Part shown: one piece after another, positions 19,712 through 26,668 of the stretch
How positions within the stretch are numbered: the first letter of the stretch is position 1
Layout: each line of letters begins with the position of its first letter
UHGV virus genome: UHGV-0041832
DNA from: a virus
Length of the DNA: 52,506 nt
Reading direction: 5' to 3' (one strand)
Position numbers and translations under genes: made by a program
The notes under the pieces: generated by a model
Told to the model about the DNA's origin: nothing
Database searches by the model: none
What the model saw: only the letters and a program-made list of their open reading frames with translations

Positions 19712-20439
19712 TGAATTTAGAATCCATTCTAAAATTCCACTTTCCTAAATCACCGCGATTATCTGACGAAAGCCGGGGCACGTCCCCGGACGCTCTTAAT
19801 ACGACGGATGCGCTAACCGCTGCGGGTATGGCGCAATCGCGCGTAGAGCTTGGATATGGCGCTTTTTTAGGGAAGATGGAACTATCACAAGCCGAAAAAC
19901 ATAGGGCCGTAGTTTTGCTTACAGAGCGTTTAAGGGCTATGGCGAAAGATTACGAATACGTGATGGAGTTAAACGAGGATCAGCGCAATGGACTTATTAT
20001 TCTTGTTGCCGTTTTCGCGTTTCGGGATTATTGCCAGAGTGCGGCGACCGAAAAAGTTTGCCCTAAGTGCGGCGGCCACGGGCATTTACCAAATCCATAT
20101 TGCAAATACACATCGACAATTTGTTCGCGGTGCAACGGCAAAGGCTACGTTAAAAACCATTGCCAACGTTGCAAGGGGCGCGGAGAAGTACCGGATAAAG
20201 CAGCCAGTGAAGCGGCGGAAATGCCAGTATTCAAAACGTGCCAGCATTGCGGCGGGCGCGGGTACTCGCGTTTCCCGGTAGATCTCGTCCGGCAGGCCGT
20301 TAACCAGCTTGTTTTCCCGGTAAGCAGATCAACATGGTGGAAGAAATACCGGGTTTTCTATGAAGACGCCATAGCGGAGCTATTCAAAGAAGAGGCCCGC
20401 GCGGAAAGCGAAATTAAACGAGTGACACGGGGTGAATAA
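19711..20439 (+). CDS. Q-like late antiterminator candidate (zinc-finger rich)
   Basis: 242 aa starting MNLESI..., multiple CxxC pairs (CPKCGGHG, CSRCNGKG, CQRCKGRG, CQHCGGRG); position after NinG/RusA as for Q in lambdoid phages. Family assignment from memory, not verified. Confidence 0.55.
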   Translation: MNLESILKFHFPKSPRLSDESRGTSPDALNTTDALTAAGMAQSRVELGYGAFLGKMELSQAEKHRAVVLLTERLRAMAKDYEYVMELNEDQRNGLIILVAVFAFRDYCQSAATEKVCPKCGGHGHLPNPYCKYTSTICSRCNGKGYVKNHCQRCKGRGEVPDKAASEAAEMPVFKTCQHCGGRGYSRFPVDLVRQAVNQLVFPVSRSTWWKKYRVFYEDAIAELFKEEARAESEIKRVTRGE

Positions 20440-20642
20440 TGGACAAGTTAGAAATAAACGATCAGTTTGCCGTTATCTTGTTCGAAGATAAAACGGGCGG
20501 CGCGTGGTGTAAGAAAGTAACTGGTGCAGAAGCGCGATTGATATTGGGTATGGCAAGCGCATTAAACGAAGGCGAATTGCCAGCCGTACCTATTGAGCCT
20601 GTTCACATTTACGGGAGGAATAGAGAAGATGAAAATAATTAA
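20439..20642 (+). CDS. Hypothetical protein (island gene)
   Basis: 67 aa ORF, ATG overlaps upstream stop. Confidence 0.45.
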   Translation: MDKLEINDQFAVILFEDKTGGAWCKKVTGAEARLILGMASALNEGELPAVPIEPVHIYGRNREDENN

Positions 20643-20976
20643 TATCGGGTGGTTATATTGCGAAAACTGCGACGACGACGGCATGGTTGTTAAGACTGAA
20701 AAAGGTTGCGGCTTCTTTTTGTATCAAGGCGATAAGTTTGTTTGTCCGCGATGCGGTGGTCATGGTGAGATAGAAATTATTGAAGATAGTGCTACAGCAC
20801 CAGAGCCGGAGCGCATTGTTCTTGACGAAAAAATAAAAATTCATCCTGATTTATTGCAGCAAATTATCGATCACATATCGGCAGCAGCAATCTATGCAGA
20901 TAATAATTATCAGCGTGAAATGAACGTCAAACGTGCGCTTGAGCAATATTTTAAGGGTGATAGTGATGGCAAATAA
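20629..20976 (+). CDS. Small zinc-ribbon protein
   Basis: CENCDDDG...CPRCGGHG; start at MKIINIG with GAGGAA SD. Confidence 0.45.
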   Translation: MKIINIGWLYCENCDDDGMVVKTEKGCGFFLYQGDKFVCPRCGGHGEIEIIEDSATAPEPERIVLDEKIKIHPDLLQQIIDHISAAAIYADNNYQREMNVKRALEQYFKGDSDGK

Positions 20977-21250
20977 ACACCTGCATTTGAATTTAAAAGG
21001 AGAATACTTCCACGCTATCCGGGCGGGGAAGAAGGTTGAGGAATACCGGCTTTACAATGAATACTGGCGTAAACGCCTGGAGGGGCGGGAGTACACAAGA
21101 TTAATCATTAAATGGGGTTATCCATCGGATGATGAGAAAGACCGGATTATCGTATTGCCTTACATGGGGTACGAAATCAAGTTGATTCAACATCCACTAT
21201 TCGGCCCTGATCCGGTGAAGGTATTCGCAATAAAGTGTGATATTTACTAG
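20966..21250 (+). CDS. Possible PUA-fold (ASCH/DUF3850-like) protein
   Basis: HLHLNLKGEYFHAIRAGKKVEEYR pattern reminiscent of ASCH-like beta-barrels; weak. Confidence 0.35.
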   Translation: MANKHLHLNLKGEYFHAIRAGKKVEEYRLYNEYWRKRLEGREYTRLIIKWGYPSDDEKDRIIVLPYMGYEIKLIQHPLFGPDPVKVFAIKCDIY

Positions 21251-21278
21251 CAATACAGATTTTAAGGTTTGTTGAGCA

Positions 21279-21488
21279 ATGAAAAAAGCTGGCCTGTCAA
21301 TTAGCCGCGTATTGTGCGGTGATGAAAACGAGATCCGCATAGAAATTAAATTTAGCACTGGTAAAGAGATAATTCTTTACACGACACCTGAAAACCTGAC
21401 GCTGGCGCTTACTGGTAAATCTGAAACGCCGTGCAACGTCCGGTTACGCAATATTGAAATTAAGGAATTAAGGAAGGGTGAAAAATGA
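21279..21488 (+). CDS. Hypothetical protein
   Basis: 69 aa ORF. Confidence 0.4.
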   Translation: MKKAGLSISRVLCGDENEIRIEIKFSTGKEIILYTTPENLTLALTGKSETPCNVRLRNIEIKELRKGEK

Positions 21489-21685
21489 AAAGTAGAATGA
21501 AACGCCTGGTAAGAGCTTACGACAAGGCTTTAATGGTTTTTAGTGACCTGCAGCACAATAAACGTGAGCGTCGTAAATGGGCGCGTTTATTTGCTAAAGA
21601 ATGGCACGAAGATGATGCGACAATCGACTGTCAAAGAGACGCAGACGAATTAGCAGATGATAACGTTTACTATATGATGTGGTGA
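21485..21685 (+). CDS. Hypothetical basic protein
   Basis: 66 aa ORF, coupled. Confidence 0.4.
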   Translation: MKSRMKRLVRAYDKALMVFSDLQHNKRERRKWARLFAKEWHEDDATIDCQRDADELADDNVYYMMW

Positions 21686-21689
21686 TAAT

Positions 21690-22055
21690 ATGCAAATAAT
21701 CATTGATTATCTTTGCCATGCTGCAAATACGCTTTTTGGTTTTTATCAACAACCATTCCTGAAAGAATGGGATGAAATGCTAAATGACATCCTCGACAAA
21801 GGATTAATAATGGAGGTTGACAAGTTTACAATCAAATTTAATTATGAGGGTGAAATTTATCTAATTTGGGTCGGGAATAGATGGTATTCATACGGTCATA
21901 TTTATTCAATTGGCGATAAATACATTAAAAGGGGTCAAGAATTCCGACCACGCTTCCGCACAATGCGCCGCCTGCATAACCTGCATATAAATATATTTGA
22001 AGATCAGGAAGCGCGGGAGCTATTCAAAATTTACGGGGGTAAACAATGGAGTTAA
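21690..22055 (+). CDS. Hypothetical protein
   Basis: 121 aa ORF. Confidence 0.45.
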   Translation: MQIIIDYLCHAANTLFGFYQQPFLKEWDEMLNDILDKGLIMEVDKFTIKFNYEGEIYLIWVGNRWYSYGHIYSIGDKYIKRGQEFRPRFRTMRRLHNLHINIFEDQEARELFKIYGGKQWS

Positions 22056-25312: not shown

Positions 25313-25315
25313 TTT

Positions 25316-25570
25316 ATGGAAATAATCAAAATATGGCGCGGCAACAGTAAGGCTGACGGTGAGTTTTGCCGCGTCGTTCAATTCGTAAATTATGGTAGGT
25401 TTTACGAGCTACCTTATGACAAAAGGAAAGATGATTTCTATTTAAGCGAGTCAATCCCGGTGCACAGAAAAATAAAGGCGCTTAGGGGGTTATTGCGAAG
25501 TGGTTTTTATTCTTGCCCTAACCCATTAAACAATCCTGAACTGGTAGCTATTTTTTACGAAGGAGAATAG
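25316..25570 (+). CDS. Hypothetical protein
   Basis: 84 aa ORF. Confidence 0.4.
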   Translation: MEIIKIWRGNSKADGEFCRVVQFVNYGRFYELPYDKRKDDFYLSESIPVHRKIKALRGLLRSGFYSCPNPLNNPELVAIFYEGE

Positions 25571-25573
25571 ACA

Positions 25574-25897
25574 ATGTCTAAATTTATCAGCGTTAAAGTT
25601 TTCCGTGGCACTTTACCGAACGAAGAAAGATTAGGACAATTTGCCGGGCAACCTAGTGCATGTTTCCGTGTAGCCACTGAAGACGATGCGCATGTTAAAT
25701 GCTTCCACGTATCGGAACCGCCTTTTAATGCAGACCATCTTGAAGACCCGGATAGAATTAAAAGCCTAGTTTTTGCCTATCTGATGTTCCAGGGTATCGC
25801 TAATATGGAAGTGGAATTGCTTGGCGCTGAACTGGCGGCAGAATACAAAGTGACTGAAGGCGAAAACGGAGGGGTGGAAATTGAGCGCATCAAATAA
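25574..25897 (+). CDS. Hypothetical protein
   Basis: 107 aa ORF with AGGAGA SD. Confidence 0.45.
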   Translation: MSKFISVKVFRGTLPNEERLGQFAGQPSACFRVATEDDAHVKCFHVSEPPFNADHLEDPDRIKSLVFAYLMFQGIANMEVELLGAELAAEYKVTEGENGGVEIERIK

Positions 25898-26132
25898 ACC
25901 TTACAAGATCCGGTGTAAAGGCGAATACCCTGGGTTTACGATTGGTTGCGAATACCTGGGCCACATTGGGTACGGCCCTTTCGGTGAGTTAGGGATGAAT
26001 ACGATGGACGACGACGGCGACAGCAGGACGCTTGATCTTGATTCTGATGATTTCGAATACATCCCTCCAGTTACTTACCGTGCCGTTGATGATTTCCTGG
26101 CTGAACATGAAGACGAGGGCGATGATGATTGA
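25881..26132 (+). CDS. Small acidic protein, possible island paralog
   Basis: IRCKGEYPGFTIGCEY...MDDDGDSRTL then poly-acidic tail. Confidence 0.4.
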   Translation: MSASNKPYKIRCKGEYPGFTIGCEYLGHIGYGPFGELGMNTMDDDGDSRTLDLDSDDFEYIPPVTYRAVDDFLAEHEDEGDDD

Positions 26133-26319
26133 ATGCCTTATAGCTGTGATTGTTTTGCTTTATATCGCTGGCGCTATCCTGATGTCTTGTTTTATTAAGT
26201 TTAGCGGAGCTGAACCTGGCGGCCTTGAGATTCCTTTTTGGCCTGTGACTGTGTTTATCGCTTTCTTCGACGCTACGGCAGGGCAGATCAATCGAGCTAT
26301 TAAGGAGCGCAAGAAATGA
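26125..26319 (+). CDS. Small membrane protein (two helices)
   Basis: MIECLIAVIVLLYIAGAILMSCFIKF...PFWPVTVFIAFFDA; overlaps upstream stop. Confidence 0.4.
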   Translation: MIECLIAVIVLLYIAGAILMSCFIKFSGAEPGGLEIPFWPVTVFIAFFDATAGQINRAIKERKK

Positions 26320-26495
26320 TTGAAGATGGGGTGTACGCAACAGTAGTAGACGGGCTGTTTTACCGCGTAGAAGGTGATGATATTCGCATCCGCGTTGGCG
26401 GTGGTGAGTGGGTAGCGCCAATCATTAAGACGACGCGAGAAACAATTAAAATATTTCTTGATGCTGGTGAACTGGTGAGGGTTAGCGACCTATGA
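26316..26495 (+). CDS. Hypothetical 59-aa protein
   Basis: Hand-translated MIEDGVYATVVDGLFYRVEGDD...; ATGA-coupled. Confidence 0.35.
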   Translation: MIEDGVYATVVDGLFYRVEGDDIRIRVGGGEWVAPIIKTTRETIKIFLDAGELVRVSDL

Positions 26496-26668
26496 ACGAG
26501 ATCGAAGATGGTATCTATTTGCATAAGGTATTTAACATCGTCTATTTACTTAAAGGTAATAAGGTGATGATAAGACCTGATGACGATCCACATTGGGAAT
26601 CAAGCGACATGGATCGGCGGCATATGCAAATGTTGCTTGATAACGGCCTGATATATAGAAAGCCGTAA
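26492..26668 (+). CDS. Hypothetical 58-aa protein
   Basis: Hand-translated MNEIEDGIYLHKVFNIVYLLKGNKV...; shares EDG(V/I)Y start with the preceding gene. Confidence 0.35.
   Translation: MNEIEDGIYLHKVFNIVYLLKGNKVMIRPDDDPHWESSDMDRRHMQMLLDNGLIYRKP

Follow-up and report, generated by a model that had tools for sequence, protein, structure and literature searches.

Results

Gene order around the Q-to-holin block

The DNA analyzed here, referred to as the window, is the 52,506-nucleotide (nt) sequence of virus genome UHGV-0041832, in which a block of 25 small and tightly packed genes (g01 to g25, positions 20439 to 26668) is located between a Q-type antiterminator gene and the lysis genes. Positions 19700-27500 of the window are 100% identical to a prophage of Escherichia coli MS 21-1 and share patchy identity of 85-88% with the phages MagusPhagus, mEp010, mEp044, mEp554, mEp013, mEp515 and mEp021. 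By its sequence, the window is assigned to an E. coli prophage of the mEpimmI coliphage group, described as Nus-dependent temperate siphoviruses that originate from human faeces and show no recombination with lambda (PMC11893012). In the PGAP annotation of the identical MS 21-1 record, an integrase gene, a leftward early operon and a LexA-family repressor gene are followed by a run of plus-strand genes, which is unbroken from 11.1 to 26.7 kilobases (kb) and continues into the lysis, terminase, head and tail genes. The order within the run is ERF, Ssb, methyltransferases, NinG, RusA, Q, the block, lysis genes, terminase and head/tail genes, with ninF, ninG and rusA directly upstream of Q. Searches for tRNA genes and Rfam matches found none in the window. 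The features that delimit the block are the following.

18270..18310, plus strand: putative nutR2 equivalent, boxA-like TGCTCTTTAAAAA and a short hairpin with an A-rich loop; the same sequence occurs in mEp021
19711..20439, plus strand: Q antiterminator gene, lambda-type (PF03589, phrog_127, PDB 7UBM)
26676..26755, plus strand: PR'-like late control unit (sequence reading, hairpin scan, conservation)
26775..27925, plus strand: lysis cassette, with holin 26775-26975, lysozyme 26976-27467, Rz-like 27455-27925 and an embedded lipoprotein open reading frame (ORF) 27645-27857

The Q product matched Pfam PF03589 (4.8e-30) and phrog_127 (3.4e-77), and its full-length match to lambda Q (PDB 7UBM, E 8e-37) covers residues 1-114 and 150-240, including the C-terminal zinc-binding domain. 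It also has an extra zinc-ribbon insert of about 35 amino acids (aa) with two more CxxC pairs. These matches bear out the Q-like assignment made in an earlier note, which was written from the letters of the sequence without database searches, and the gene encodes a genuine lambda-type Q. Its stop codon shares 1 nt with the start of g01, there is no recognizable promoter or non-coding spacer from Q to g01, and the gene that follows Q varies among relatives. Inside Q, the 30 nt at 20000-20029 are 99.5% identical over 40 loci, and identity drops to 77-85% in the adjoining 100-nt Q blocks. Lambda has an antisense promoter, paQ, inside Q; no paQ-like site was identified at the conserved 20000-20029 stretch. 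Further upstream, at 18270, an rrn-like boxA (TGCTCTTTAAAAA) that is identical in mEp021 precedes ninF-ninG-rusA-Q and the block. In mEp021, nutR2 sits downstream of gp32 and is the target of the N-like protein Gp17 (PMC11893012). We regard the boxA and hairpin at 18270 as a putative, nutR2-like equivalent of that site.

The late control unit at the right boundary is composed of a -35 element (TTGTAG, 26676-26681), a 17-nt spacer, a -10 element (TAAAAT, 26699-26704) and, after 7 nt, the motif AACAAT (26712-26717). This motif is followed by a 7-bp GC hairpin (26732-26750) and a T-run; the Shine-Dalgarno sequence of the holin gene and its ATG (26775) come last. Lambda PR' has the same layout, with TAAATT, 6 nt and AACGAT, and its -10-like element causes a sigma-70-dependent pause where Q loads. 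From about -20 to the holin start and ribosome-binding site, the unit is nearly invariant in 31 distinct variants, in which at least four different genes precede it. The motif is single-copy in the window, and no second qut-like site was found in the region. A consensus promoter scan returned no more sites than shuffled sequence did and missed both candidate promoters discussed in this report, the -35 elements of which are weak. GenBank records contain terminators at the homologous position, TERM_5 in mEp021 and T9 in mEp010. A terminator named t5 is listed as experimentally demonstrated in the legend to Figure 7 of PMC11893012; judging from the numbering in the GenBank record, it probably is TERM_5, the pre-holin terminator.

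Downstream of this unit, PGAP names a holin, a lysozyme and a lysis protein, and the holin matched PF16080 (1.9e-15). With its -10 element, AACAAT motif, hairpin and T-run, single-copy and near-invariant in 31 relatives, the promoter/terminator pair that had been proposed at 26676-26775 is plausible, and the order Q, gene block, PR'/tR', lysis genes was confirmed. The possibility of another late regulator at 26.1-26.7 kb, which would have undone that proposal, was not borne out, as g22-g25 have no regulator-like matches. The architecture is read as Q-block-PR' because no spacer follows Q and the sole conserved promoter/pause/terminator unit is directly upstream of the holin gene. Q and its predicted target are 6.3 kb apart.

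The 25 ORFs are protein-coding genes

There are 25 plus-strand ORFs of 46-121 aa (mean, 80 aa) between the Q stop codon (20439) and 26668, in agreement with the approximate number and sizes given in the earlier note. They are listed below together with their occurrence in related islands, i.e., Q-to-holin blocks. For this comparison IMG/VR was scanned with Q, which gave 46 loci with 10 kb of downstream sequence; with the addition of GenBank loci, the set amounts to 42 distinct islands. The ratio of nonsynonymous to synonymous change (pN/pS) was calculated against diverged orthologues, and pLDDT is the confidence score of the AlphaFold2 (AF2) models.

20439..20642, plus strand: g01, 67 aa, acidic; phrog_35000; 40/42 islands; pN/pS 0.08
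20629..20976, plus strand: g02, 115 aa; N-terminal zinc ribbon (CxxC...CxxCGGHG), helical C-terminus; 19/42 islands
20966..21250, plus strand: g03, 94 aa, weakly ASCH/PUA-like; phrog_625; 34/42 islands
21279..21488, plus strand: g04, 69 aa; phrog_1222; 16/42 islands
21485..21685, plus strand: g05, 66 aa; phrog_8758; 40/42 islands, median identity 64%
21690..22055, plus strand: g06, 121 aa; 41/42 islands; AF2 pLDDT 84
22046..22276, plus strand: g07, 76 aa; phrog_38280; 42/42 islands; pN/pS 0.12
22287..22520, plus strand: g08, 77 aa; lineage-restricted; 42/42 islands; pN/pS 0.07
22517..22804, plus strand: g09, 95 aa; phrog_33175; 26/42 islands
22801..23028, plus strand: g10, 75 aa; phrog_5009; 42/42 islands
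23033..23248, plus strand: g11, 71 aa, acidic; 42/42 islands; pN/pS 0.06; AF2 pLDDT 89
23245..23490, plus strand: g12, 81 aa, basic; lineage-restricted; 42/42 islands
23490..23702, plus strand: g13, 70 aa; paralog family A; phrog_31142; 15/42 islands
23713..23970, plus strand: g14, 85 aa; possible family A member; 14/42 islands
23981..24220, plus strand: g15, 79 aa; family A; phrog_31142; without PGAP call; pN/pS 0.16; 21/42 islands
24217..24441, plus strand: g16, 74 aa (PGAP start 24223); probable family A member; 21/42 islands
24540..24818, plus strand: g17, 92 aa, very acidic (net charge -11); phrog_7287; 16/42 islands
24829..24969, plus strand: g18, 46 aa, acidic; phrog_22232; 28/42 islands
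25013..25312, plus strand: g19, 99 aa; without PHROG match; 31/42 islands, also mEp021
25316..25570, plus strand: g20, 84 aa; phrog_32200; without PGAP call; 27/42 islands at about 49% identity
25574..25897, plus strand: g21, 107 aa, acidic; phrog_23107; 39/42 islands; pN/pS 0.38
25881..26132, plus strand: g22, 83 aa, TTG start, net charge -15; phrog_25234; 37/42 islands
26122..26319, plus strand: g23, 65 aa, hydrophobic, two predicted membrane helices, hydropathy index (GRAVY) 0.95; phrog_10061; 38/42 islands
26316..26495, plus strand: g24, 59 aa; paralog family B; phrog_15318
26492..26668, plus strand: g25, 58 aa; paralog family B; phrog_15318; in mEp021

In the identical MS 21-1 stretch RefSeq/PGAP annotates 22 of these genes. 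The three that are left without annotation (g11, g15 and g20) are backed by conserved homologues and low pN/pS values, g15 and g20 also by PHROG matches, and g11 by its mEp021 homologue found in virions. All 25 genes have pN/pS values of 0.03-0.38, with the higher ones at the right end of the block (0.29-0.38 for g21 and g23-g25). Because these values are in the same range as those of Q (0.09), the holin gene (0.12) and the lysozyme gene (0.09), the 25 ORFs are real protein-coding genes under purifying selection. There is practically no chance that they are random frames or decaying pseudogenes within a spacer. The lack of a PGAP call for three of them and of a PHROG match for four would agree with such an origin, but the pN/pS values, far below 1 in 25 of 25 genes, already refute it by themselves; moreover, 96% of the sequence is coding on a single strand, Shine-Dalgarno-like motifs precede most start codons, 21 products have PHROG matches and there is proteomic evidence for a homologue of g11.

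The tight packing described earlier was confirmed, the coding fraction being 96.4%, but the statement that nearly all genes are coupled by overlapping start and stop codons was slightly overstated. Overlaps, of 1-17 nt, are found at 14 of the 25 junctions; eight junctions have short gaps of 3-10 nt, and the gaps at the other three measure 28, 43 and 98 nt. The largest is the previously reported 98-bp gap at 24442-24539. GC content is 0.40-0.46 across the block and about 0.45-0.49 in the flanks.

Core genes and flexible cassettes

The Q-to-holin distance among the 42 islands varies from 2.0 kb (mEp021) to 7.1 kb, and the 25 genes occur in 39 different presence patterns, although the order of the shared genes is never broken. 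Five genes are universal (g07, g08, g10, g11 and g12, 42/42), and g06 (41/42), g01 and g05 (both 40/42) are nearly so. At the other extreme, g02, g04, g13 (15/42), g14 and g17 each occur in a minority of the islands, and g15 and g16 each occur in one half of them (21/42). The plaque-forming phage mEp021 keeps 8 of the 25 genes and has no counterpart of the other 17; the universal five have no natural deletion. Its minimal island contains g07, g08 and g10-g12 but not g06, and the minimal islands of loci L017-L019 keep g06-g08 and g10-g12. Several cassettes are absent from the window, among them a 100-aa family present in 37 of 42 islands and more alleles of both paralog families. No plasmid relatives of the block were found.

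The flanking genes are more uniform. Q identity is 85-100%, and holin identity is above 90% except for two loci that have a different holin. The islands are mosaic with respect to Q: locus L027 has a Q of 88% identity yet a near-identical island, and locus L005 has a Q of 100% identity yet a divergent right half. By gene content, the island is built of a lineage-specific core (g06-g08 and g10-g12) within flexible cassettes. The proposal of an accessory region with variable content between conserved Q and lysis genes therefore held for most of the block (39 patterns in 42 islands, 2.0-7.1 kb) but not for the five universal genes. Likewise, the alternative that the genes form a conserved syntenic core applies to about a quarter of them, which are kept in fixed order, and the rest are variable.

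One cassette, found in L010 (2789-3619), L035 and L037, encodes a 274-aa protein with a phosphoadenosine phosphosulfate (PAPS)-reductase domain (PF01507, 2.4e-09). Its slot is between g12 and the internal terminator described below, and it is the only enzyme-like cassette in any island.

Non-coding elements within the block

Terminator-like hairpins are present at three places, inside g08, in the 98-bp spacer and at tR'. The elements located within the block are the following.

22305..22333, plus strand: intragenic terminator-like hairpin AAGCGGG-6 nt-CCCGCTT with T-run, inside g08 (scan; free energy (dG) -19, z -5.2)
24443..24458, no strand assigned: perfect CRP-consensus core TGTGA-N6-TCACA (TGTGATCTGTATCACA), sole copy in the window
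24465..24498, plus strand: internal terminator-like hairpin, 15 bp, 3' arm running into UUUUGUUAU (dG -19.9, z -6.1)
24476..24504, plus strand: candidate internal promoter TTGTTT, 17 nt, extended -10 TGtTATAAA, conserved in 22/22 variants
24973..24992, no strand assigned: GC-rich hairpin GGGGCC-N4-GGCCCC upstream of g19 (hairpin scan, fold)

The g08 hairpin is followed by TTTTTTGTT, and the 30 nt around it are 99.5% identical over 40 diverged loci, far above the average of the gene. In one relative both arms have changed in a compensatory manner (GCGGG/CCCGC to GCGCG/CGCGC), with every substitution synonymous, and in another relative there is a change to G.U.

The 98-bp spacer element occurs once in 33 of the 42 islands, with different genes on both sides, and was not found outside the mEpimmI phage group. 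Over 22 variants 99.7% of the cells of its hairpin are paired; six pairs are altered on one side with pairing kept, mostly as G.U on the plus strand. GenBank records label it as T8, a terminator predicted by ARNold, in mEp010, and as a terminator in mEp044 and mEp554. The extended -10 (TGtTATAAA, 24496-24504) overlaps the tail of this hairpin and is the only plus-strand extended -10 match between 12.9 and 29.3 kb. Extended -10 motifs (TGNTATAAT, at most 1 mismatch) are depleted in the window as a whole, with 32 found versus 60.6 +/- 7.8 expected and at least 32 in all 100 shuffles, which suggests selection against spurious promoters. The CRP core, of which 0.02 copies would be expected by chance, is about 60 nt upstream of the predicted transcription start (about -61). 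Relatives have retained its left half-site; the right one is variable among them and degenerate in most.

The GC-rich hairpin upstream of g19 is also found before the g19 homologue of mEp021 (L001 4931-4948), so that it travels with the g19 cassette. A T-rich run follows it on the minus strand, and it might act as a terminator of antisense transcripts.

Products of the block and their relatives

None of the 25 products reached a curated threshold of Pfam or NCBIfam, and 21 of them match PHROG families, all of which are classified as unknown function. No anti-defence or defence family was matched in Pfam, PHROGs, NCBIfam or PADLOC, none of these being a dedicated anti-defence library; PADLOC, which covers defence and not anti-defence proteins, gave 0 matches for the 25 products. 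Pfam detected no helix-turn-helix (HTH) or Aca-like marker genes among them, nor are there any Nin-family proteins. The isoelectric point (pI) is below 5.5 for 14 of the 25, and for g17, g18 and g22 it is 4.4 or lower.

As the earlier note had stated, a zinc-ribbon protein (g02) and a possible PUA-fold protein (g03) are the only products that can be weakly recognized; scans of Pfam, PHROGs and NCBIfam added nothing further. The g02 product matched Pfam DnaJ_CXXCXGXG at 0.0017, under the curated cutoff. An origin of g02 as a Q-derived fragment was considered and rejected, the similarity being limited to the CxxCGGHG motif. For g03, the Pfam ASCH match (E 0.009; 17.1 bits versus a cutoff of 21.2) is confined to the N-terminal 26 positions and was seen in six of eight homologues, and the similarity to PDB PH0355 is weak (E 0.65). 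PGAP names g03 homologues "ASCH domain-containing" or "RNA-binding protein".

Two paralog families are arranged in tandem, and further alleles of both occupy variable slots of other islands. In profile comparisons with hhalign, family A is represented by g13 and g15 (86.9%); g14 scored 41% against g15, and against the family A profile g16 and g14 scored 63% and 17%, respectively. Family B consists of g24 and g25 (96.8%). Membership of g11 in family B and of g22 in family A was not supported by profile comparison.

The products of g08, g11 and g12 are essentially confined to the mEpimmI lineage. There are just three matches to g08 among 1.84 billion cluster representatives, and the g11 family is found exclusively in E. 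coli prophages of the group. Confident AlphaFold models were obtained for g06 (pLDDT 84) and g11 (pLDDT 89), but a fold search of both models against the PDB returned no significant neighbor, and a sequence search of the PDB with g12 and g02 returned nothing meaningful. The g11 product is 93% identical to mEp021_41, which is annotated as a virion structural protein. Mass spectrometry identified this homologue in mEp021 virions purified on cesium chloride (CsCl), a preparation in which the early protein Ssb was detected as well, and the homologue is reported to be conserved in all 48 genomes analyzed (PMC11893012). The RegA-like fold proposed for it in the same paper was not supported by our fold search. 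The C-terminal 17 residues of g11 (RKRPANLEEEMLIDEVLK, 23198-23248) are invariant even in homologues that are 45% identical overall, and in many relatives, including mEp021, a 1-nt indel leads to an alternative 82-aa tail.

Homologues of some products occur in other phages. Phage 21 has a g03 homologue in its exo-xis region, where it is flanked by orf61-like genes and xis. In Stx and P22-like phages, homologues of g03 and g04 are located close to the integrase end; virulent siphoviruses also have such homologues. P2-like prophages of Salmonella encode homologues of g06 in their early operon. The arrays of small ORFs in phage rV5 contain three paralogous matches to g10 (ORF127, ORF140 and ORF141) and also ORF167, to which g17 is 61% identical. 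The families that the block shares with other phages sit in early accessory regions.

Discussion

A proposed nin-like array between Q and its predicted target

We propose that the block is a nin-like array of delayed-early accessory genes, placed downstream of Q, that separates Q from its late promoter, a reading to which we assign a probability of about 0.62. Transcription of the block would proceed rightward, the block being the distal part of the early right operon. Polymerase modified by Gp17 at the nutR2-like site (18.27 kb) would read through ninG, rusA and Q and would then get past the hairpin in g08, the terminator of the spacer and, in part, tR', and unmodified polymerase would be stopped stepwise at the terminator-like hairpins. 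The genes of the block would be translated by coupling. Q produced from the same transcript would diffuse to a polymerase paused at AACAAT, 6.3 kb downstream, and lysis and morphogenesis would be turned on. The flexible products are small, mostly acidic and mostly without relatives, and during the early phase of infection they probably act on targets in the host or in competitors, to judge from their size, acidity, variability, paralog diversification and sharing with early accessory regions. A role in the cycle of the phage itself is possible for the conserved g06-g12 block. In addition, g17-g25 may use their own extended -10 promoter behind the internal terminator, where the CRP site at about -61 could, in this allele, lead to expression in the prophage.

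Several points weigh against this proposal. Every transcriptional step in it is deduced from sequence features. The -35 element of the putative PR' is weak (3/6 matches) and has two unrelated forms among relatives. The spacer hairpin shows no two-sided compensatory change in 22 variants, and its shuffle control was not significant. Five universal and strongly constrained genes fit the label accessory badly. The finding of a g11 homologue in virions fits late expression better than early expression, although Ssb is in the same preparation. Finally, a functional clue for the targeting of host or competitor was looked for in all 25 products, and none was found.

Other explanations

If the true Q-dependent promoter were at or inside the 3' end of Q, the 25 genes would be late genes. 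Shiga toxin (Stx) phages are organized in this manner: their PR'/tR' comes straight after Q, and the cargo, several kb long and located upstream of S, follows PR' and is late and Q-dependent (PMC6266700, PMC7547250). The g11 homologue detected in virions would be accounted for as well. Nevertheless, this explanation is very improbable, with the Q stop codon overlapping the g01 start, a variable next gene and no conserved non-coding unit at that place; the sole conserved -10/AACAAT/terminator unit is the single-copy one at 26676-26755, and a strong terminator directly before the holin gene would be pointless without a paired promoter. A different kind of claim, on function and not on architecture, is that the block is counter-defence or host-takeover cargo, as suggested in the earlier note, i.e., a store of small inhibitors swapped among phages in an arms race. 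It is compatible with the explanation that we prefer. The small size and acidity of the proteins (14/25 with pI below 5.5), the flexible and mosaic content, the two tandem paralog families with many alleles, the families in common with unrelated E. coli phages, virulent ones included, and the higher pN/pS at the right end (0.29-0.38 for g21 and g23-g25) are all consistent with it. Yet there is no match to any family of known function, PADLOC defence proteins included, no HTH/Aca-like marker was found, the g06 and g11 models do not resemble known inhibitors, and five genes are universal and not variable. We consider this function possible but somewhat unlikely; Pfam, PHROGs, NCBIfam, PADLOC and two structure searches gave no direct evidence for it.

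About equally tentative is the idea that g06-g08 and g10-g12 are a core module by which the lineage serves its own cycle, for instance with virion-associated or DNA-handling proteins. The six genes are present in fixed order in 41-42 of the 42 islands and are kept in the minimal islands of L017-L019 and, except for g06, of mEp021. The pN/pS values of g08 (0.07) and g11 (0.06) are among the lowest in the block; g08, g11 and g12 are lineage-restricted, g06 and g11 have confident, well-folded models, and virions purified on CsCl contained the g11 homologue, which is reported as conserved in the 48 genomes analyzed (PMC11893012). However, universality is not proof of essentiality, mEp021 lives without g06, the g10 family is multicopy in the rV5 small-ORF arrays, as is typical of accessory genes, the RegA-like assignment of the g11 homologue failed in the fold search, and the mass spectrometry signal may reflect abundance, since early Ssb was in the same preparation. 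It is more doubtful that g17-g25 are an autonomous, moron-like unit that extends from its own promoter (24476-24504) to tR' and is expressed in the prophage as a lysogenic-conversion or exclusion trait. The spacer is kept in 33 of 42 islands whatever the flanking genes, the extended -10 is invariant and the sole plus-strand copy in 16 kb, the CRP core (0.02 expected) is about 60 nt upstream of the predicted start, a class I position, a strong terminator closes the far end and the unit includes the two-helix membrane protein g23. On the other side, the promoter is a prediction with a weak -35 inside the hairpin, the right half of the CRP site is not conserved in most relatives, GC content is that of the rest of the phage, and the extended -10 may be a mere part of the terminator U-tract, GenBank labeling a terminator alone. 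Quite improbable, in our opinion, is a bolder version in which the Q-to-PR' block would be the main arms-race locus of the lineage, with paralogs and cassettes as new inhibitors, g11 as a pre-made effector packaged in the capsid and g17-g25 controlled by CRP in the prophage. The logic of a packaged effector co-delivered with the DNA would be analogous to that of T4 IPI* and P1 Dar. The nin-like array, the counter-defence function, the core module and the internal promoter unit do not exclude one another.

Comparison with known systems

The closest parallel is the lambda nin region (ninA-ninI, between P/ren and Q), which, like the block, is a tight array of small ORFs, many of which overlap at their start and stop codons; the nin ORFs are largely dispensable, as many of those in the block may be. 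The nin region belongs to the N-dependent early right operon, has intrinsic terminators that only antiterminated polymerase passes and is mosaic, properties that the block probably shares. They differ in position: nin is upstream of Q, and the block extends from the Q stop codon to PR', so it cannot gate Q as tR2-tR4 do. In addition, none of the 25 products is of a Nin family. The lambdoid exo-xis or ea region (orf60a, orf61, orf63, ea8.5) has the same character of small, non-essential, delayed-early ORFs, but it is part of the early left operon, on the other side of the genome, and has 2 of the 25 families in common with the block (g03 and g04).

Stx phages also have several kb of non-lysis genes (tRNAs, stxAB, nanS-p) between Q and holin. 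In the window, which contains no tRNA genes, the cargo precedes the PR'-like unit, and because PR' follows the block it is not late cargo of the Stx type. The morons of HK97/HK022-type phages, which are expressed from the prophage, resemble g17-g25 in being bracketed by a promoter (a candidate one here) and a terminator and in their presence or absence among close relatives. They consist of one gene instead of nine, the block shows no compositional difference, and its left two-thirds have no promoter of their own; because composition is ordinary and there is a candidate promoter for the right third alone, the block is not a classical moron. A classification as an anti-defence island is not supported either, since Pfam, NCBIfam and PADLOC returned no marker. 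The early arrays of virulent phages (rV5 ORF114-195, with comparable ones in T4 and T5) are also runs of 40-120-aa unknown ORFs with paralog families. Phage rV5 shares the g10 and g17 families but differs in its many sigma-70 promoters and in being a 137-kb virulent phage.

MagusPhagus, mEp010 and mEp021 are members of the same group, with the same Q, lysis genes and terminators. Sequences and annotation of these phages existed before, and a description of the group appeared in 2025. The mEpimmI paper mentions that some regions are variable and that one virion protein is encoded "upstream to the lysis region", and the passages of it that were consulted contain no analysis of the Q-to-PR' block as a unit, of a core/flexible structure, of paralog families or of internal control elements (PMC11893012). 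What is new here is the placement of the block, its core-plus-flexible structure, the paralog families and the internal control elements; the kind of region is familiar.

Q abuts its target promoter in lambda. The layout described here would be a variation in which 2-7 kb of early genes, with up to three terminator-like hairpins, separate Q from the site on which it presumably acts in trans, and this layout is common to a whole, frequent group of human-gut coliphages. The islands also offer a set for screening of anti-defence, host-takeover or exclusion activity, with some 25 genes in each phage, over 40 families among the relatives, a natural presence/absence map and, among the targets, two diversifying paralog families and one virion-associated protein. 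Their importance is limited by the fact that arrays of small unknown genes are familiar in phage genomes.

Other features of the window

Beyond the block, the window and the MS 21-1 chromosome record differ by an offset of 92 bp between about 33.9 and 39.1 kb, so that the window is not that record base for base. The product of 31583-32953 carries the RefSeq name "anti-CBASS protein Acb1 family protein". Its position and a match to Pfam Phage_portal_3 (1e-17) identify it as the portal protein, and the Acb1 name looks like an annotation artefact. Two minus-strand genes (39779-40153 and 40164-40823) are inserted amid the plus-strand tail genes. One of them is VasI/TagO-like (PF11319, 1.2e-15), a type VI secretion-associated family, and the pair looks like a moron-like insert.

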